64,000 nt of DNA, taken from Sarea resinae. Lineage: Eukaryota. The translations under genes and the position numbers were made by a program. Where the stretch lies: the NCBI GenBank assembly GCA_026026165.1, contig JAPEUD010000011.1:310001-374000 (forward strand), given 5' to 3'. Positions 49,467 through 64,000 of the stretch are shown here, one piece after another (positions within the stretch are counted from its first letter, which is position 1; each line of letters opens with the position of its first letter). Under the pieces are notes generated by a model. That model saw only the letters and a program-made list of their open reading frames with translations. It was not told where the DNA came from and searched no databases.

Positions 49467-50528
49467 GCCCCTTCTCCTTACTACCATTGAAGAAGGAATC
49501 ATTGTTTCTCTCTATCAATTAGGGAGCGGAAAGAACTCTTTCGTCGTGCATGAATGATTGGTGGTAGTATTGATCTCCCTGGCTGGCAAGGAGGGGCTGC
49601 CGTGAATTTTTTGGAGTATACTTCTCTAATTGATCGCAGTGAGTAGTACTGGATAGTACCTGTACGAGGCAGCTCTGCCGGCCAGGGAGATAGTGGTGCG
49701 TTTTTGAGTGTGACGAGGTGGCTTACGATATGCCAATGCACAATATGTGGGATTCGATAAGTCTTTCTCTCTTCTCTTGACTTCCTCTCACGCCTTAAAT
49801 TTGATTTATCTACGATCTATCTTCTCTCTCGGATTCGCTCTCCCAGGAGCAGATTTTCTCTCTGGGTCTAATATATATAGATCTGTTGTTGGCTGGAAAA
49901 AGGATAGGTAATAGGGAATAGAGAATGTAGAGGGGGTACGAGACTATAGAGAAGATAGAGTGTGAAGAGGGAACGAGGTATAGTAAATTCGTGCTCTCTC
50001 TCTTTCCTTCCTGTCCCTCGCTTTTCTTCTTCTCACCTGTTTCCTCGTTACTTGTTTCTTCTCCTGCGCTCTACCCCGTTTTTCTTCTTCGGTGGGTTTG
50101 CCCTGCTCTGCCAAACTCTTCTACGCCCAGTAGCGAAGCCTAGTGTCCGTACGCCCGCTCCGCTCCCTCTGACTAACTGACTACTCGAATATTCAAGTAG
50201 GTGGGTGGGGGTGGGGCGGACCATGAAGTCTGCTGAGCGAGCGAAGAAAACGAGTAGTAGCAGTGCGCAGGCCTTAGCCCGAGCACGCGGCGTGGCAGCA
50301 CATTCTCTCTCTCTCTCCTGTCCAGGTAGATGAGTCTTCGATGCTTCTTATCTATCTGGATTTCGGGGTAATTGAGCCCGAGGGTATCGATGGCATGGCA
50401 TGATGATCGCACGCTCTTGTGGAAGTTTGATCTTCAGCGATCCTTTCTTGTGTCGTTGGCTTACTTCTCCTTATTCTTCTGATGGTTGAGTACCTGGATG
50501 ATGGATGGACCGATTCGAATGTGGGCTA

Positions 50529-50724
50529 TTAGCTGCTCCCGCTTGCGCTGGCTTGCATTTGAAGGCCCGAGGGATGAGGGGCTTGGCTTTGCGATTGTGA
50601 GAGCGGGGTTTGTTGAGTGGTTTTGTAGCGTTTTTTCTCCTTTTTGGCCCAACGGACTGCCATAGATGGGTGTATTAGAGTTGTAGATAGCATGCATTGG
50701 AGAGAAAAGAAAAAAAAGAAAGAA

Positions 50725-50783
<59 letters not shown>

Positions 50784-52194
50784 CACGTCCACAGGCATTG
50801 CACAGCGTCTTTGGTCCATTCGGACCCTTCCTCCACTCGGGCGAATCCAATGTCCCGCAATCTGTGCACACGTACTCGTCTGCCACCTTCAGCTTCTTCT
50901 TTTTGTCCCCCGCGCTCCGCGTGTCTTTCTCTATCGGCAACGCAATGCCCGCGTCGCCCCTGATCAGCGCCGGACTGGCGTCTCCCGTGGAGATACCCTG
51001 CGAGCGCTCGCCGTCACGATAACGGAGTCCGGTCAGCATTTCTATCGTCTCGATATGGTTCGCCCCTTCGTAGCGCGCCATCTTGTCGTTGATGCTGTCA
51101 GGTTTCGACGACGCGTTGGCTTCGTTGAGCGCCTCGGCGGTCAGCGCTGTGCTAGAGTTCGTTGGTTTAGCTGGCGGGGGCATGCCGCTGTGATCCGTCG
51201 AGGCCGTCATTATAGATGCGGAACCCGGCGTTTCGCTTTCGGTGCGGGCGGTGTCGGAGGCGGTGACGCTGCCTTGCTGACCGTCGGCTTTGCCGCTCGC
51301 ATTGTTCAAGTGGCGTTGCTGTGATTCGATTTCCTCGGCCTCTTCGCGCTTGAGGTCCGCGATGCGTTTCGTGAGCCGCTCGTTCTCCATCTTGTGCTCG
51401 AGGAACGTATCGAGCAGGGCGGCGTTCTTGGTGGGATACGGCCGCGCCATCATGAAGAGGCCTCTGCAGAACCCGGCGGCATTGTTGGGCCCAAATACTG
51501 CGGCCTCCGAGGTCAGATGCGGGTGGCCGTGCGATTCAAAGATGGTGTAGGTGCCATCCTTCTTGCGGAAGCGGTAGAAGAAGCGCAGCGCGTTGCCCGA
51601 GGCGATGGATTCGTTGAACTCGCGCACAAAGATGCCGCTGTCGTCCGGGTGTATGAAGTCGCCGATGAAACGGCCAACTAGCTCGTGGGGCTCGTAGCCC
51701 GTCAAGGACCCGACGGACGGGGAGACGTAGAGGAGCCGGCCATCGGGCGTCAAGATGTGTAGAAAGTCTCTGAGCTCCTCCAGCACCCGCTGAGACCAGT
51801 TGCGCCGCTTTGTGAATTCCGTAAGGGTGCTGCCGCTATGGCCGCCGGCCTGGGCGCCGAAGCTCGTGGGGAGAGGGCCTGCCCCTACCCCGCTCATTGG
51901 ATTGCCTGCCACCGCGGCTATGGCATCGTTGCCATCATTGAGGGGCTGCTGCTCTTGCTGGGCCTGCGGTGGGGGTGCGTCTGCAGAAGGTGGCTGTGAC
52001 TGCTGCTGTGCTGTTGGAACAATCGGAGCATACGATTGAGAGTCGGGATCGTTGAATTCGAGGCCCAAGCTCGCAGGGAGCAAATCGACGTCCATCTGGC
52101 CCATCATCTGGCGATTTCGGGCCGGGCCTTGGCCGAGCATGCTGGTCATCGTGGCGACATGGTTATTGTGCAGTCCGAAACCGTTGGTGGACAT
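50529..52194 (-). CDS. wc-2: white collar-2 (PAS + GATA zinc finger) light-response transcription factor, 2 exons
   Basis: [14 protein letters not shown] domain (DFIHPDD), [20 protein letters not shown] and [27 protein letters not shown], joined to LRWAK by intron 50657-50786. Confidence 0.95.
50729..50780. repeat. (AG)26 microsatellite inside the wc-2 intron
   Basis: Counted; starts immediately after the GTGAGT donor on the minus strand. Confidence 0.95.
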
Positions 52195-52850
52195 CTGTTC
52201 TCGAGATTGAATGCGCCGAGAGAGGGATAAGGGGCCACTTGGCCAATGTGTGGTGGAGGTGGTTTTTGACGATGGATGGTGTTGGGGGTGGAGGAGAGAG
52301 TCAGTGGTTTCAGGTGCGATATCAATTCATTCATGGACAAGTACACGAAGTAGGCCGGGACAGCCGGTGGCCGCAGTCTTACGGCGTTTGCGTCCAGAGT
52401 GACTTCGACGGGTAGAGAATGCGATTTCTTCCAAGATCATCCACGGTAAATCTCATATATCCTTCACTCTATGGAGACTCAACCACAAATTGTCTGATTT
52501 TCGACCTCACCAGTCGAGCGCCTGCATCACCTTCCAATCTCTCAATAGCAACGATTGTTGCTGTCAAGAGCTCGATATAGCGAGGTGTGAGGTGAACCAC
52601 TATCCAGACCTTGACCTTTCGCTTAGGCTCTCACCCGCCTGCTTGGTGTATCTCTAGGAGCTACCTTGGTCTCTCTACCGCGACTGTTGCCTTGACGGAC
52701 GCCCATTGTTTGGTTTGCGGTCTTGATCGTTGCCTCTTTCACCATTCACGCAGTCATCCGGAGGGGAAGGAGACGATAGCGGGTGCACAGCAGTGGGCAG
52801 ATTCGACTCTTCAGCTTCTGGTGTGATTAATCCCACCGATCAGAAGCATC

Positions 52851-55800
52851 ATGTAAGTCTGAACGGATGGTCCTGAAGGCGAGCTCGACTAACTATTTGC
52901 AGGTGTAAGTGTCGTGCACCTATCTAATATGAGCTTGATAGACATGCCAATCAAAATGCTTTGAGATGGTACTGATCGTAGTCCTCTAGCTAAAATTGAC
53001 AAGCTGCAAATCCTGGGGTAACAAAATATCTTCTGGGTTCTCTCTCATTTACTTATCACGTGCACATATAGGGTCCGCTCCTTTGACAACACCAGGAGTG
53101 AAACAATCCAATTCCACACTCCTCTAACCCTCATTGTTGGTTACAATGGCTCTGGGAAGACCGTAGGTTGATGTTTGAGCTTTCGTTGAGAGGTCAGTAT
53201 TGACTACGATCAGACAATCATCGAATGTCTCAAGTATGCTACGACCGGCGATCTCCCCCCTAATAGCAAAGGCGGCGCTTTCATTCATGACCCCAAGGTT
53301 TGCATATTCTCGAATATTCCCATCATATCTATTAATATCATTGCAGCTTTGTGGAGAGAAGGAGGTCCTGGCGCAAGTCAAGCTGTCGTTCAAGAGCACA
53401 TCAGGAGCGAAGATGGTAGCGACGCGAAGCTTGCAGCTCACAGTCAAAAAAGCCACTCGACAGCAGAAGACGCTAGAAGGATCACTGCTTATGCTGAAAG
53501 ATGGCGAGCGTACGGCGATTTCGTCGCGTGTGGCAGAATTGGACCAGATTATGCCCCAATATTTGGGTGTGTCCAGGGCAATTCTGGACTCTGTTATCTT
53601 TTGCCATCAAGACGAGAGTCTATGGCCAATGAGTGAACCTTCAGTGCTGAAGAAGAAATTCGATGAGATTTTTGAAGCGCTGAAATACACCAAAGCTATT
53701 GACAATATCAAAGTCCTCAGGAAGAAGCAGAATGAGGAGCTTGCCAAATACAAAATCATGGAGCAGCATTCAAAGGAAGACAAAGACAAGGCCGATAAGG
53801 TAAGGACTACCACATTTTCCGCAGTCGGACGCTTACAAGTAACAGGCGGAGAAACGATCCCAAGAATTGGCTGACGAGATTGAGGCCCTGCGTGATGAGA
53901 CCTTGGACCTCAACCGACAAATCAAGCAGATATCGGAAGAATCACAGGAGTCCTGGGACCATGCTCATTCTTTCACTGGTGACATTGAGACCCTCAAAGC
54001 CAAGCGTATTGCAGCCCAGGCAAAACAGGAAAGCGTCAATGATCTTCGGCTACACATCAAAGAGATGACGGATACAGATGAGGAGCTTACGTCCATCCTT
54101 GAGCAGTATGAAGATCGCATGTCTTTGTACGAAGGGCAAATTGCTTCCCGGAGAGAACGCTATGACGAACTCAAGGGTGATATTGAGCAAAATCGACGCC
54201 TTTTAGGCGCGAAACAGACCGAGGTCGGCAAATTTGAGGCGGAAAAGACGCATTTCGAGCAACAAATTGCAAGGAGAGAGAGCATGATCAAAGAGACTGC
54301 TCGAAGACACAATATTCGGGGCTTTGACGACGAGCTTGACGACCCTCAGATTCATGATTTCATGGAAAAGATTAGCAAGATGTCTAGGGATCAGAACATT
54401 CATCTCGAACGAGCTCGCGCAGAGACAAAGAATCAATTGCAAGACGCCCAAGATGTCCTTAATCAGCTTGGGCAGCGCAGGTCTGCTCTGAGCGAAAGAA
54501 AGAATGCTGCCAGGCAACAGATTGCCTCCAACGACAGGAAATTTGAAGAGTTCCATGCAGAGCTCGACAAAATTGACATCGATGAAGGGGGCAAAGCAAC
54601 TCTAGAGTCCAGCCTACATGAAGTCGAGTCAAAATTAAGAAAGTCCAAGGAGGACTACGACGCTGCAGCGTGGGAACAGAAGATTCAAGATGCGAATGCC
54701 GAATTTCGTTCGTTAGAAGATGCCCAGGAGAGGCTAAAAGCCGATATGTTGCAGGCCTCCCGGCAGGCCGAGCAGTCGGCGAGGCTCAATTTCTTGAAAA
54801 AGGAAAGGAAAGAATTGCAACAGAGTCTTGATGTGATGGTGAAGACTCATGGCGGTAGGGTTACCGACATGATTGGCCACGATTGGGAAATCCCGAGCTT
54901 GGAACGTGATTTCCAGGCAGCTCTCGAGCTGAGGAAGGCTGCTCTCGATGAAGCAGAAAAGCAAAGGAGCGGCATCTCAAGGGAATTGGAGCAGGTGGAG
55001 TTTAAGCTCGGCGCCAGCCGCAACGATCTAAAAAAGAAACGCGAAGAGGCACAACGCTGCGAGTCACATGTCCTGAAAGCCATGCAGGATGAAGGGCCCA
55101 TTGAGTCGTATCCAGAAGTGCTCGCGGAGGTACAAGATGGTCGCGATGTCCGAAAGCATGATGTCGACAGTTTCGGCCACTTTCAAAAGTTCTACCTGAC
55201 ATGCATCAGTAAAGCTAAAGATGAAAACAAATGCCATCTGTGCACTAGGCGCTTTGACGTTGTTAAGCAACGTTCCGATTTTCTAGCAATGCTCGAAAAG
55301 TTGATCTCCAAAGGGGGTCAGGATATTGTGGAAAAAGAATACAGAGAGCTTGAAGAGGACCTTAAGAGTCTTAGGGAAGCCGGTTCGAGCTACGACAACT
55401 GGAAGAGACTTTCTGGGACAGAACTTCCAGCTCTGGAAAGGGAAGTGAAAAAACTAGAGTCCAGGCGAGAGACATTACTCAATGAAATTGAGGACCACGA
55501 CAGAGTCGTTACTGAGAAGGAGGACGCCAAGAGGGACGTCGAGGCCTTGACTAAGACTGTGCAGAATATCGTCAAGATTAGCGTTGACACTGCCAGTATG
55601 GAAACCCAGATCCGTGACCTGTCTTCTCAGCAAGAGAGTGTTGGCTTAGCAGTCTCACTTGAAGAACTTGACGAACAATCGAATTCGCTGGGCGATAAGA
55701 CACGTTCAACGAGGGCTTTGATATCAAAGCTCACGGCAGACAAAGAGCGAACGAGAGGCCAGATCAGCGCATTTGAATTGGAATTAAGCAACCTCAAGGC

Positions 55801-57265
55801 TAAGCTGGCAGGTGCTACTCATCAGCTAGAAAAGAAAACCAACATCGTAGCTCGAGCCGAAGAGTTGAAACAGCTTAATTTGCAGCAGAGAGAGACCATG
55901 AAACACGCGGAGACTGACATACAAGACCTTGTGCCTCAGATTGCCAAAGCACAGAGTACCTATGACGATATCAGTCAACGCGCTGCTGAGAAGGAGAAGA
56001 AGCTGCAGCAGGAGGCTGCAAAGCTTTCTGACAGCGTACGCCAGCTCAATATGGCAGACGAGGACATCAACGCATACGTCAAAAAGGGGGGCCGTTCCCA
56101 GCTTGAAAGATCACAACGTGACGCCAAAAACTATCAGCAAGAAACCGATCGCCTTGAGCATGAGCAACGTCAGATAGTGGTTGAGATCAACAAAGCTACA
56201 GATCAGCTCAAGAACAATGAGGAGACCAAGAGAAGCATTTCGGACAATCTCCGATTCCGTCGAGACGTTCGAGGTCTAGAGGCAATAAACGTTGAAATCC
56301 AGCAGCTCGAAGAACGTAATGCGGAAGCAGATCGTGGCCGATTCGTTAGAAAGGCGCAAGAGTTGGATCTACGGCATTCAAGACTCTCAGCTGAACAAGC
56401 GAGTAAAATGGGAGCGATGAAGTCGAAAGATGACCAACTCGCTGAGCTGCTTGAGGACTGGAATACCGACTACAAAGATGCAGGAGTCAAGTTCAAGGAA
56501 GCACATATCAAGGTTGAGGTGCGTTGGTGCGCTCAGTAACTCCCCGCTGGCTTCGCTGACCACACACAGACTACTAAAGCAGCTGTTGAGGACCTAGGTC
56601 GCTATGGTAGTGCTCTTGACAAGTACGTGATTTTCCATCCTATCTTTTCCATTGTCACTAATGGAAATTCAAGAGCCATCATGAAATACCATGGCCTCAA
56701 GATGGAAGAGATCAACCGTATTATCGAAGAGCTTTGGAAAAGAACCTATCAGGGTACCGACGTCGACACCATTCTCATTCGGTCGGATAACGAGAACGCT
56801 AAAGGAAACCGATCATACAACTATCGTGTTTGTATGGTGAAGCAAGACGCCGAAATGGACATGCGGGGACGGTGCAGCGCCGGACAGAAAGTGCTCGCGA
56901 GTATCATCATCCGGTTGGCGTTGGCCGAATGCTTCGGGGTCAACTGTGGTTTGATTGCTCTTGACGAGCCGACCACTAATCTCGACCGCGATAATATCCG
57001 CTCTCTAGCGGACTCACTCCACCACATCATCACAGTGCGACAGCAGCAATCCAATTTCCAGCTCATCGTCATCACGCATGACGAAGACTTTCTGCGGTAT
57101 ATGAAATGCAATGACTTCTGCGACAACTACTACCGCGTCTCCCGGAACGAGAAGCAGAAGTCTATCATCGAGCGGCAGTCAATCAACGAGGTAAGTGCCC
57201 CCACCAGGTCTGATGCCTCAATTTGCGCGATGAGTGCTGAGATGATGATCTTCAAGGTCATGTGA
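52851..57265 (+). CDS. RAD50: DNA repair protein Rad50 (MRX/MRN complex), 10 exons including a 2-nt microexon
   Basis: Introns 52853-52902, 52905-52989, 53018-53071, 53163-53213, 53298-53346, 53800-53845, 56519-56569, 56623-56673, 57191-57256. Spliced product: [15 protein letters not shown], Walker [16 protein letters not shown], Zn-hook CHLC, signature [20 protein letters not shown]. Confidence 0.96.
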
Positions 57266-59568: not shown

Positions 59569-61036
59569 ATGCTGTTCAACTGTGTGGTCTCTACCCTCCT
59601 TGCCGCTGGAGCGGCATTTGCTTCTCCATTGTATGTGGCGCCTATTCGAGCTGGGGTTCTATCTTCGTGCTGACCATTGCAGAGGGCGTAATTTTAAGCG
59701 CGATGCCAGCTTCGCATATGGTTCGACGGTTGTTCGAGGCGCAAGCATTGGCGGATGGCTAGTCTTAGAGCCGTAAGTCTTTATAGCTCTTCTTTGGAGG
59801 TGCCTCTTCCGTTGACGATTATTCAGATGGATTACTCCTTCTATTTTTCAAGCGCAAAACGGCTCAATCGTGGATGAGTGGACACTTGGCCAATATCTCG
59901 GTGAAGAGGCCGCGCTCGCGGTCCTTACCGAACATTGGAATACTTTTACCGGACTCGCCGATTTCCAGAAGCTTGCGGATGCTGGCTTCAACCTTGTGCG
60001 CATACCGATTGGGTACTGGGCGTATCAAAAATTCGACGACGACACATACGTGCAAGGCGCCGCTCCTTACCTCGATCAAGCCATTGGTTGGGCGAACCAA
60101 ACTGGTCTCAAAGTCTGGGTGGATCTGCACGGTGCCCCAGGCTCGCAGAATGGATTTGACAATTCTGGACGTCGCCAGGACAAGCCGGGCTGGCAACAGG
60201 GCGACACGGTTGATCAGACACTGCAAGTGCTTCAGACAATCATCGACAAATACGCCCAGGAAGAGTACAATGGCCTTGTTGTCGGTATCGAACTAGTCAA
60301 CGAGCCTTTCTCCCCCGAGTTGGATCTGGATATTCTGAGGCAATATTACCGCGATGGCTTTGGTAAAGTAAGGGAGGTCAACCAAGACATGCCTGTTATC
60401 CTACAGGATGGCTTCAATGACGATACTTACTGGGACAACTTCTTGACGCCCGACGACGACAACGCTAAGAATGGTGAGTCTCTTGCCGGTCGGTTTTGCG
60501 GGCTGAAACTAACGGAAATCCAGTCGTCCTCGACCACCATCAATACCAAGTCTTCAACGACACCATGGTCGCTTGGTCGAACTGGGTATGTTGTTACGAA
60601 TCGCTAGACATCCCAGCATGATGACACTAACAACCTCTAGCAACATCGCCAAGAAGTTTGCAACATGGCATCTTCCTACCAAAACGCCGACCACTGGGTC
60701 GTCGTTGGCGAATGGACCGCTGCCCAAACCGACTGCGCCCCCGCCCTGAACGGCTACGGCATCGGCGCACGCTACGACGGCACCTACCCCAACTCGACCT
60801 ACGTGGGCTCCTGCGCCGGTCTCAACGACATCACGACGTGGTCGCAGCAGCAAAAGGACGATACCCGAGGCTACATCGAGGCCCAGCTGGAAACCTTTGA
60901 ACGGTACACGCAGGGCTGGATCTTCTGGAATTTCAAGACCGAGGCGGCCGCGGAGTGGGATCTTTTCAGGCTTCTAGATGCCGGCGTCTTCCCGCAGCCA
61001 TTGACCTCGAGGAAATTCTCCAGCATCTGCTCGTGA
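59569..61036 (+). CDS. EXG1: secreted GH5 exo-beta-1,3-glucanase, 5 exons
   Basis: Signal peptide and KR site; introns 59631-59682, 59773-59826, 60474-60523, 60586-60640. Motifs GGWLVLEPWITPS, RIPIGYW, DLHGAPGSQNGFDNSG, IELVNEP, VVGEW. Confidence 0.93.
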
Positions 61037-62599
61037 TTACTCCGTTCTCGTTCGGCCATTATTTCGACGACATGGCGGATTGACTGATACGGGACCAACC
61101 GCCGTTCATAAACGGCTCACGACCTCCCAAATGTCACCACCATCTATTCACCAACCCACACACTTTTAGACTTCGCCTCGCTCTTTTTCTCCGGTCTTGA
61201 TACTCGAGAATACTTAATACCACGACTCCTCCTCCGGGAGACATCCTTTTCTTCTGTTCTGGTTCCAAACGATGGGGACTTTTTGTGTGGATAATAGTCT
61301 GACTAGTACAAGATATCCCCTCCCCCGCCCCAATTGTATATTATCTGGACGGGAGAAAACTGCTCTGTATAATTCAAAATATCATGGTTCTCCTGGTTGG
61401 AAAGACTGGCTGATCTATCAGGCCTGATGAAGATTCTCAAGTCTGTTCAGGTTCATTGCGTTAAGGTGCTTGACATTTATGCCGTATAGACAAGTAGTAA
61501 GTATCTCCTTCTAGCACGAATTGCCGTTTCCCTTATTGCCTTGGCAAATCCTATCTTATAAAATTATCTGAACTGCCTCCTAGATTTTGGAGTATCTTCT
61601 TAGTAGGGTTGCGCAAGGAAGTATAGTGAATCAGTAGCGTTACGTCGTGAAGTAGGTAGAGTTGCATTCACTTCTAGCGGGCCTTTGTTAGAATCTGGTG
61701 AATGAGTAGGTAGCTGCCCCTCTTATAATTGCTATTGCCCTCGCACTTCTTTCCTTGCACCTCTTAACCTCTTTATCCTCTTATCATTTCATTTCACCTC
61801 TTAATTTCTCTATCATCTCCTTATCATCTCCTCATCATCTCCAAGGTTCTCTACTATCTCTATACAACTCGAGAATAGCGTTTTCTTTTGCTATCTCGGT
61901 CGACTAGTAAGTATGGCGGGATATGGATCGATTCGATAAAATGCGGCGAGAGCAGGTAATACTGCCCCAAACGCCACTCACCCGTCGTGGTCGTCGAGTT
62001 CGCCCTAGAGCTTGCCGCCCCCAGTGTCATCCCTCTTCCCGCCATCAGCCCTGCCGGTCTAAGCAGCTCTATCGTCAAAGAAAACAACACCGGACAGCGT
62101 TCGGAAACTCTTGAGCGTGCCCAGACTATTTATAGTGCAGTCAGCAACGGCCGCTGCAGCAACTACGCGGTCAAATATCAATCAAGCACTCTGGATGTGA
62201 AAGAAAGAGTAGGTTAGCAACAAAATATTCATAGGTCTAGCTAAACATCGCCTTGCAAAAGGCCTCGCCGAGGCTCCTCGCTCGCAGATCTCTCACCAAA
62301 CTCCTACTTGATCGCTATGTCTTCGCCGATCAAGCAAAAGACCAGCACGGAATTACTATATATAAAGCGAGCAAGGCTAGATCCTCGAGCAAGCGCCTCG
62401 GATGAGGTTATATTCAGTATATATCAAGAGAGAGTTTCGTGCCTTTTACCAGACGACCGTTACAATATCTACGTTGTCATGGTATCCATCGAAACTGTCG
62501 AAATTACATTCGCAATATAGAAGAGGTGATCCGCGAGCTACTACAAGATATAGAGAAGCTCAAAGAAGCCATCATTGACTACTCTAAAACTGACTCATT

Positions 62600-63350
62600 T
62601 GCTAGTTTAGGCAACGCACAAAGGAGCGATAGGTTAGACATCAGCATCACGAGGGACCTTAGAGTAGTAAAGCTGCCCCCGTAAGTCTTTCTTATCCTCG
62701 TTCTTAACGACGTTTCTCAAAGTTAGTTCATCTAGCGCATCGACGAGCGAATCAGTGGACTGTAAATCAACTAAATCGTTGTCTTCGAGGTGAGTGGTTT
62801 GCATCTCTGCTTTGACTACCATGGCTAACCTTAACTCTTCACAGGTCGCTGACGGACTTTCTAGCGGAATTACTCAGAATGATATGTGACAAATACGTCA
62901 AGGATCTACCGACGACGATTGTTCTGTGCCTAGCCAGCAAGCATGCCATCAGCCTCCTCCACGTGAGTAGGACGTCCCGCTAACTCGTTGGCCGGCGACT
63001 CGTCCGCCAAGCAACTGTGTACTGTCTGTCCAGCGAATAGGTCAGAGCGCGCTTCCTTAAGAAGGTATTCAAGGCTGCCTGGCCAATCTGTTCCCCTTGG
63101 CCACAATGTTCGGCAAGATGACAGTGATATGGATCGATATAGAAGCCGATCTTGCTCTCAGTCCATGGGGCTCGAGGCTAGAGTCGTCACTGAGGAGCAG
63201 AAGCTAGCTAAATACATCACACTAGCAGCTACGAGGGTCTTGAGGTCCGTTTCAGACACTTCTCTCCACGATTCAGGGTCTCCCACGAATTAGCCAAGGC
63301 TCTTCGTCATATCTTGCAATTCCGATGCCAAGAAGCGAAAAACCTCCAAA
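62600..63350 (-). pseudogene. possible mutated coding relic of unknown family
   Basis: A minus-strand frame reads protein-like (ELQDMTKSLG*FVGDPESWREV..LEYLLKEARSDLF) with scattered TAA/TAG stops, in a TpA-enriched region. No family recognised. Confidence 0.25.
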
Positions 63351-64000
63351 AAGCCAACAGATGAAAACTAAGACTTATAATAGCCTCTATAAAGACTAAG
63401 AAGCCGCAAATGTCTAAGAAATACACAGGCGCTCTGAAGCCTTAGGACAGCTGCTACCGAGATGAGAAAGACGCTAGTATTTCAAGTATAAGAGGCTGTA
63501 GACCTCCAAAAAGCAAGAAACCCCCTGACCGTTTCCTCTTTATAGGTGGATCATATGCATGGAGGTTCTATAAGGCTACCATATCAGATAAAGCCGTTAT
63601 GTTGCACGTCCCAGCGGCAGGAGAGGGGTACGAAATTGCCCTTGACATGCGGCCGGGAGGCATCAGGCGTATGGCAGTCAACATTTTACATCCAGAGGCT
63701 GTTTTGTGAGGCATGACCCAGCTTGCCATGAAAGCAGATTGCGTCACGAATCTGTTCCTTGCAATGGCAGGCGTGCGATCCGATAACTTGTCGGAATGTT
63801 ACTTTACCGAGCTGTCTTTGACTCGAAGTTATAACTCCTCGAGATTGCTTTCGACATGGCCGACGAGTGCGAGAGGACACGCGTGGAAAGCAATGTCTAT
63901 TCAAAAGCTCGAAGAGTAAGTGAACGTGAACGATCTGACTGGAAATTTCTACAGGTTGTTGTTTATCGTGGGCCGAGGAATACATTGGCGTGTCGTTTGA

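Follow-up and report, generated by a model that had tools for sequence, protein, structure and literature searches.

The start codon of RAD50 in the fungus Sarea resinae is probably assembled in the messenger RNA (mRNA) from separate pieces, AT, GT and CT, brought together by the removal of two canonical U2-type introns, with the middle piece being an exon of just two nucleotides (nt). The gene lies on the forward strand of a 64,000-nt stretch of DNA, referred to here as the window (contig JAPEUD010000011.1 of assembly GCA_026026165.1, positions 310,001 to 374,000); all coordinates are counted from the first letter of this window, and all RAD50 features are on the + strand. Judged from the sequence, this arrangement is the best-supported gene model by every in silico test applied. 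From it we infer where the junctions lie, in which order the introns are spliced, that both are removed constitutively and that transcription starts upstream of 52851.

The layout had been proposed in an original prediction made from the letters of the window. Re-reading the contig segment 52851–52990 returned every coordinate and motif as proposed, with the order AT, intron, GT, intron intact. Exon 1 is predicted to end in AT (52851–52852), which forms the first two bases of the start codon in the context agcatcAT, with an A at −3; according to the list of ATGs in the window, 52851 is the sole ATG-forming site within 52474–52866. Intron 1 (52853–52902; 50 nt) has the donor GTAAGT and the motif GACTAAC at 52887–52893, whose branch A (52892) lies 10 nt from the 3′ end, and it ends in GCAG, giving the acceptor CAG. 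The predicted microexon GT (52903–52904; 2 nt) would contribute the last base of ATG and the T that opens the Ser2 codon TCT. Intron 2 (52905–52989; 85 nt) again begins with GTAAGT, carries TACTGAT at 52970–52976, whose branch A (52975) is 14 nt away from the 3′ end, and closes with CTAG, giving the acceptor TAG; a second, proximal and competing TAG (52979–52981) is situated 6 nt from the same branch A. Exon 3 (52990–53017; 28 nt) opens with CTAAAATTGAC, providing the last two bases of Ser2, followed by Lys-Ile-Asp-Lys-Leu-Gln-Ile-Leu and the beginning of a Gly codon.

With both introns removed, the joining of AT, GT and CTAAAATT yields ATG-TCT-AAA-ATT-GAC, corresponding to the N-terminal sequence Met-Ser-Lys-Ile-Asp-Lys-Leu, which continues directly into strand beta-1 and the Walker A loop. 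In this model the DNA itself holds no uninterrupted triplet that could serve as the initiation codon. Unspliced RNA instead reads AUG-UAA, a start followed directly by a stop, and retention of intron 2 leaves an open reading frame (ORF) of 8 codons. If GT is skipped by joining donor 1 to acceptor 2, the product contains no AUG; read codon by codon, its frame is open back to a TAA at 52828 only, with no ATG inside. All four translations had been part of the original prediction and were reproduced, as was the claim that the in-frame ATGs within intron 2 (52929, 52944 and 52956) are blocked, since each runs into a TGA at 52962. Because the frame of exon 3 is closed upstream by this TGA, with no ATG after it, the start must come in by splicing.

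The identity of the gene is clear from its body. An ORF at 53843–56539 (898 amino acids (aa)) matched fungal Rad50 in the protein collection with E = 0 to 1e-68 (96 matches), including one 100% match to ‘MAG: hypothetical protein M1819_000737 [Sarea resinae]’ (1212 aa; MAG, metagenome-assembled genome), which forms a cluster of 1 member. A gene model obtained by tblastn of two full-length orthologs, with subsequent inspection of exon boundaries, comprises 10 exons and 9 introns, with a coding sequence of 3912 nt (1303 codons plus stop) and no internal stop. Its product has the Walker A motif, the CxxC zinc hook, the signature motif with Walker B and full-length similarity to Rad50, and solved Rad50 chains align with the ortholog P0007 over its entire length. 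The deposited 1212-aa protein equals the model letter for letter from residue 92 to the end, which independently confirms introns 6–9. It is without the first 91 residues, and hence without strand beta-1 and the Walker A loop. The expectation, voiced in the original prediction, that gene predictors would miss the structure is borne out by this record, whose own protein starts at model residue 92; as we read the layout, the loss would have come about because the start codon is in three pieces, one of them 2 bases long. Exon 4 (53072–53162), placed by tblastn to orthologs, encodes the missing strand beta-1 and the Walker A sequence GYNGSGKT, and this exon alone (30 aa) matches Pfam AAA_23 with an E of 2.1e-8 over profile positions 7–33. 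Because the match begins at profile position 7, just a handful of residues are expected upstream.

The splice signals around the microexon are of high quality. The donor is a perfect GTAAGT in either intron, intron 1 in addition has ACTAAC, and the branch spacings of 10 and 14 nt compare with 10–16 nt in introns 3–8; the length and branch spacing of intron 1 are in line with those of the other introns of the gene, which measure 46–66 nt. The introns on either side of GT both combine a canonical donor and a YAG acceptor with a normally spaced branch motif; GT is also needed for the conserved protein, and its omission breaks the ORF. Elsewhere in RAD50 the GTAAGT donor recurs in intron 9 only, and the donors of introns 3–8 are weaker. 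Over the entire window the hexamer GTAAGT is found 8 times per strand, and the full pattern GTAAGT...CTRAY...YAG is found twice on the + strand, at exactly introns 1 and 2. As to the distribution of the hexamer itself, all 8 occurrences on the + strand are at 52853 or beyond, 3 of them in RAD50 and 5 at 59773–63916, with none in the first 52.8 kb.

Two computations address how readily such a structure could be found by chance. A permissive enumeration of the region 52195–52991, which allowed GT/GC...AG introns of 35–400 nt, <=3 introns and <=80 extra codons, returned 1,055,229 AUG-initiated paths, so that the bare existence of a path is weak evidence. Paths that give ATG and exactly one codon before Lys3 are far fewer (133 in all, 40 of them encoding Met-Ser), and a single one of these 133, the microexon model, has good signals on every intron (donor matching GTAAGT in at least 5 of 6 positions, branch motif and YAG). 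In the second computation intron 2 and exon 3 were held fixed and the upstream 300 nt were shuffled with dinucleotides preserved. The strict arrangement, AT followed by GTAAGT...CTRAY...YAG and a GT abutting the donor of intron 2, was present in 0 of 200,000 shuffles; a lenient version was present in 45 and a version with any GT...AG in 994 of the same number. The AT/GT arrangement thus lies far beyond chance.

The predicted N-terminus agrees with that of other Rad50 proteins. Among the 96 homologs, the N-terminal beta-1 motif is kept within the first 120 residues by 38 and absent in 58, the latter being fragments, prokaryote-style ORF calls or truncated models resembling the deposit. Twenty-nine of the 38 start with Met-Ser, exactly 8 residues before the motif; the other nine consist of seven with longer leads and two with short starts other than Met-Ser. 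The first 60 residues of the model align without gaps from Met1 to five orthologs, with 52–58 of the 60 positions identical. The solved chains 7zr1_C and 5da9_A, which we take to be from Chaetomium thermophilum, and 9bi4_C likewise begin with Met-Ser, and their residue 1 falls on residue 1 of P0007 in the alignment, with the N-terminus of 9bi4_C differing at several positions. When bacterial and archaeal contigs were scanned with the 20-ortholog alignment, 48 loci were found, all of them prokaryotic Rad50/SbcC by record title. Errors at this end of the protein are frequent in annotation: by our own count, the N-terminus is truncated or spurious in 20 of the 30 orthologs with NCBI names that were returned, and RAD50 models across Pezizomycotina are probably confounded by a very small first coding exon.

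The original prediction held that only the removal of both introns gives a usable start. It is correct that Met-Ser is obtained when both are out, but a canonical path from an ATG at 52867, in frame into KIDKL, had been overlooked. According to this alternative there is no microexon: translation would start inside ‘intron 1’, and a single intron, 52905–52981, would be removed, producing a Rad50 in which a 16-residue lead ending in Ala before KIDKL replaces Met-Ser. Such a start is unlikely, even though its one intron is canonical (GTAAGT...CTGAT...TAG), 12 codons are open from the ATG to the donor and the context gaacggATGG has a purine at −3 and a G at +4. Its acceptor would be 6 nt from the branch A, compared with 10–16 nt in introns 3–8 and 14 nt for the microexon model. 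The lead is unconserved and displaces the Met-Ser of 29 of 38 orthologs and of the solved structures. Moreover, when the upstream 300 nt were shuffled with dinucleotides preserved, 9,320 of 20,000 sequences (47%) contained an open ATG path of the same type, so that its presence carries no weight, whereas the GTAAGT...ACTAAC...CAG at 52853–52902 would have to be a coincidence in the 5′ untranslated region and first exon, with a signal set and exact placement seen in 0 of 200,000 strict shuffles. If transcription begins upstream, the first AUG would furthermore be the AUG-UAA at 52851. N-terminal extensions of a similar style in seven ortholog annotations could be cited in favor of the ATG at 52867, but these seven leads have no mutual similarity, as would be the case for read-through artefacts. 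Five of them (P0002, P0003, P0020, P0034 and P0063) end in Ala directly before KIDKL, preceded by Ala, Arg, Lys, Ser and Ser, respectively, all residues that by the genetic code have codons ending in A, as AG requires. An Ala at this position is what results when an acceptor AG|CN is read through (G + CN = GCN), whereas T + CN gives Ser. The Ala-ending leads therefore point to a phase-1 intron in codon 2, intron 2 in the present gene, that would be old and widespread in Pezizomycotina, with its position probably conserved, and to the extended N-termini being annotation artefacts of the same type as a start at 52867 would be here. It is highly improbable that the start lies elsewhere, be it a non-AUG codon reached after removal of 52853–52989 as one intron, an upstream coding exon or a site obscured by a local assembly error. 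The frame of the GT-skipped form is open from 52831, but by our own reading the eight open codons at 52831–52852 plus CT include no near-cognate start codon. Many multi-intron upstream paths are contained in the permissive enumeration of 1,055,229, but those inspected (the best 25 of that total and the best 12 of the 133) have poor donors or no branch motif and add unconserved residues. The source record is a MAG, but the rest of the gene reads through 1303 codons without a break and agrees exactly with the deposit. Several points do weigh against the three-piece start codon. Both splice junctions are predictions from the sequence. By an ad hoc score that rewards a match to GTAAGT, a CTRAY-like motif 6–40 nt from the 3′ end and YAG, the microexon model and the path from 52867 tie at 9.0 (top 25 inspected). 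The 20 orthologs of alignment A1 had been picked for a Met-Ser start, such that the invariance of M1 and S2 there is due to selection and 29 of 38 is the unbiased count. Finally, combining the microexon with the proximal TAG at 52981 stops the frame after 3 codons. Bearing on this last point, intron 6 provides an in-gene case of a skipped proximal AG (53830–53845): per the deposited protein, an AAG 4 nt after the branch A is bypassed for a CAG at 10 nt.

A different question is whether a microexon that is real would also serve as a regulated gate, with intron retention or GT skipping turning Rad50 synthesis off, as the on/off switch of the original prediction implied. This is improbable. In a more elaborate form, taking out the two neighboring introns in a set order would be the rate-limiting step, and the non-productive pool would tune Mre11–Rad50 dosage, for example in meiosis or after DNA damage, with the tiny first coding exon being conserved across Pezizomycotina for that reason; such a maintained gate we regard as quite improbable. 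In its favor, the partially spliced forms are all non-productive (AUG-UAA, 8-codon ORF, no AUG), and the divergent neighbor is a WC-2-like PAS/GATA gene, although this is a matter of adjacency only. Regulated retention usually accompanies weak splice sites. By contrast, introns 1 and 2 carry the best donors of the gene, GTAAGT twice, compared with GTAACA, GTAGGT, GTTTGC, GTAAGG, GTGCGT and GTACGT in introns 3–8, and this signal strength argues for constitutive use. The pre-mRNA has no unusual RNA structure: the folding energy of 52841–53017 is −38.7 kcal/mol (z = +0.96), with 162 of 200 shuffles folding at least as well. An Rfam scan of 52200–53400 with E up to 1 gave 0 matches, and thus no known RNA in intron 2. 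A regulated microexon has been reported in a filamentous fungus, Trichoderma Xlr2 (PMC11121469), which speaks for a gate; on the other hand, start-codon introns are the most efficiently spliced class in Yarrowia (PMC13309789), and in a general sense any gene with introns depends on splicing. The sequence gives no support to regulated use, and the strongest splice signals of the gene, at introns 1 and 2, mildly contradict it.

Fungi recognize short introns by intron definition. With an exon of 2 nt, the acceptor of intron 1 is three bases from the donor of intron 2, which leaves no room for two spliceosomes at once, so that the introns would be removed one after the other. Sequential removal by intron definition is the most likely course, and either order would leave a normal substrate for the second reaction: if intron 1 went first, intron 2 would then face an ordinary 5′ exon ending ...CATCATGT, and if intron 2 went first, intron 1 would face an ordinary 3′ exon starting GTCTAAAA. 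The first to be removed is probably the short intron 1, while transcription is still under way; both its earlier transcription and the rule of smallest-first removal in complex introns of Lipomyces, in which the smallest definable intron is taken first (PMC7138796), favor the 50-nt intron. Two mis-splicing routes can be envisaged, and both would be non-productive: joining of donor 1 to acceptor 2 would leave no AUG, and use of the TAG at 52981 would lead to the stop after 3 codons. The process is most likely constitutive and efficient rather than regulated, and the presence of the best donors at introns 1 and 2 would be in keeping with selection for removing the introns efficiently and accurately despite the awkward layout.

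Exons of this size and introns at this position each have precedents. Long reads from Coprinopsis cinerea revealed 57 exons of 2 nt in 50 genes, along with 13 exons of 1 nt and 27 of 3 nt (PMC12230235), and a 1-nt exon in Fusarium CYP621A has read support from the Sequence Read Archive (PMC12940212). As in these fungi, the predicted RAD50 microexon is a 1–2-nt exon that stands between canonical short introns, keeps the frame of a conserved motif and was missed by automatic annotation; the Fusarium exon is embedded in AG-G-GT and that of RAD50 in AG-GT-GT. Unlike the Coprinopsis and Fusarium exons, which are inside coding regions and supported by RNA, the GT of RAD50 is predicted and would give base 3 of the start codon, and its skipping would remove the AUG without causing a frameshift. 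In Arabidopsis, APC11 has a constitutive 1-nt exon, likewise with RNA evidence, for which exon definition was argued to be impossible and whose flanking introns were proposed to be removed sequentially (PMC4674806). RAD50 would share with APC11 a sub-codon exon and the logic of one-after-another removal that we propose; APC11 differs in being a plant gene with a mid-gene exon of 1 nt that was tested with reporter constructs. Yarrowia lipolytica has 42 introns within or directly after the ATG, which are spliced with high efficiency (PMC13309789). By position intron 1 of RAD50 is of this class, its predicted 5′ splice site directly following the T of ATG as in Yarrowia, where that site directly follows a nucleotide of the ATG; however, a single intron splits or follows the ATG in Yarrowia, and in RAD50 a second intron begins 2 nt later.

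The pair of introns is also reminiscent of two systems with stepwise removal. In a stwintron, one intron sits inside another and splits its donor, branch or acceptor, so that the external intron is formed only once the internal one has been excised (PMC7138796). The RAD50 pair resembles stwintrons as described there in consisting of two neighboring U2 introns with duplicated or nearby GTAAGT donors and consecutive reactions. Stwintrons leave nothing in the mRNA, whereas in RAD50 the primary transcript contains each intron in full and 2 nt would stay. A reading of the RAD50 pair as a stwintron was rejected, as neither intron interrupts the signals of the other and the GT at 52903–52904 is kept. 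A ratchet point of recursive splicing has the form AG|GTAAGT, with an exon of zero length. Recursive splicing is also mentioned in PMC4674806. The likeness is in the acceptor adjoining a regenerating donor and in the stepwise removal; the difference is that the RAD50 donor stands 2 nt past the acceptor and 2 nt would be retained. A zero-length recursive site was rejected as well: its donor would be GTGTAA at 52903, and the resulting join is the GT-skipped form, with no AUG. Exact-phrase searches, with subscription journals outside their scope, turned up no published case of a start codon completed by a microexon, a result that does not establish its absence from print. Among the matches listed for Sarea resinae there were only taxonomy and ecology titles and no genome or transcriptome paper. 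With 2-nt exons and start-codon introns each already documented, the RAD50 layout is rare, but of a kind known in fungi.

For the same reason, the case is a tidy curiosity and a lesson in curation rather than a new principle. If a start codon indeed comes into being only through two neighboring splicing events, it would put intron definition and the sequence of intron removal to an extreme test, and the few sub-codon exons on record would be joined by one located at a start codon. The lesson for annotation is that a Rad50 without its ATP-binding Walker A loop has been deposited, and that errors at the N-terminus recur among RAD50 orthologs.

Beyond exon 3, the model continues with intron 3 (53018–53071; 54 nt, GTAACA...TAG), the Walker A exon 4 described above, intron 4 (53163–53213; 51 nt, GTAGGT...CAG), exon 5 (53214–53297), which was likewise placed by tblastn to orthologs, and intron 5 (53298–53346; 49 nt, GTTTGC...CAG). 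Exon 6 (53347–53799) also matches Pfam AAA_23 and contains model residue 92, at which the deposited annotation begins. Intron 6 (53800–53845; 46 nt, GTAAGG...CAG) agrees with the deposited protein and leads into the long exon 7 (53846–56518), which encodes the coiled coil and the zinc-hook CxxC (CHLC). It is followed by intron 7 (56519–56569; 51 nt, GTGCGT...CAG), exon 8 (56570–56622), intron 8 (56623–56673; 51 nt, GTACGT...AAG) and exon 9 (56674–57190), with the signature motif and Walker B (DEPTTNLD region). Intron 9 (57191–57256; 66 nt, GTAAGT...AAG) is in frame and stop-free, and its retention would add 22 residues. The last exon, exon 10 (57257–57265), encodes Val-Met-stop and matches the C-terminus of the deposit and of ortholog P0036; RAD50 thus also closes with a tiny coding exon.

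The divergent upstream neighbor (50461–52326, − strand) encodes a WC-2-like protein in which a PAS fold (E 8e-16) and a GATA zinc finger are recognized. The match to the finger stops at profile position 27 of 36, where the ORF translation becomes a Ser-Leu repeat, which makes it probable that an intron interrupts the finger. This presumed intron contains a perfect (AG)26.5 microsatellite at 50729–50781, with an AGAAA repeat beside it at 50703–50721.

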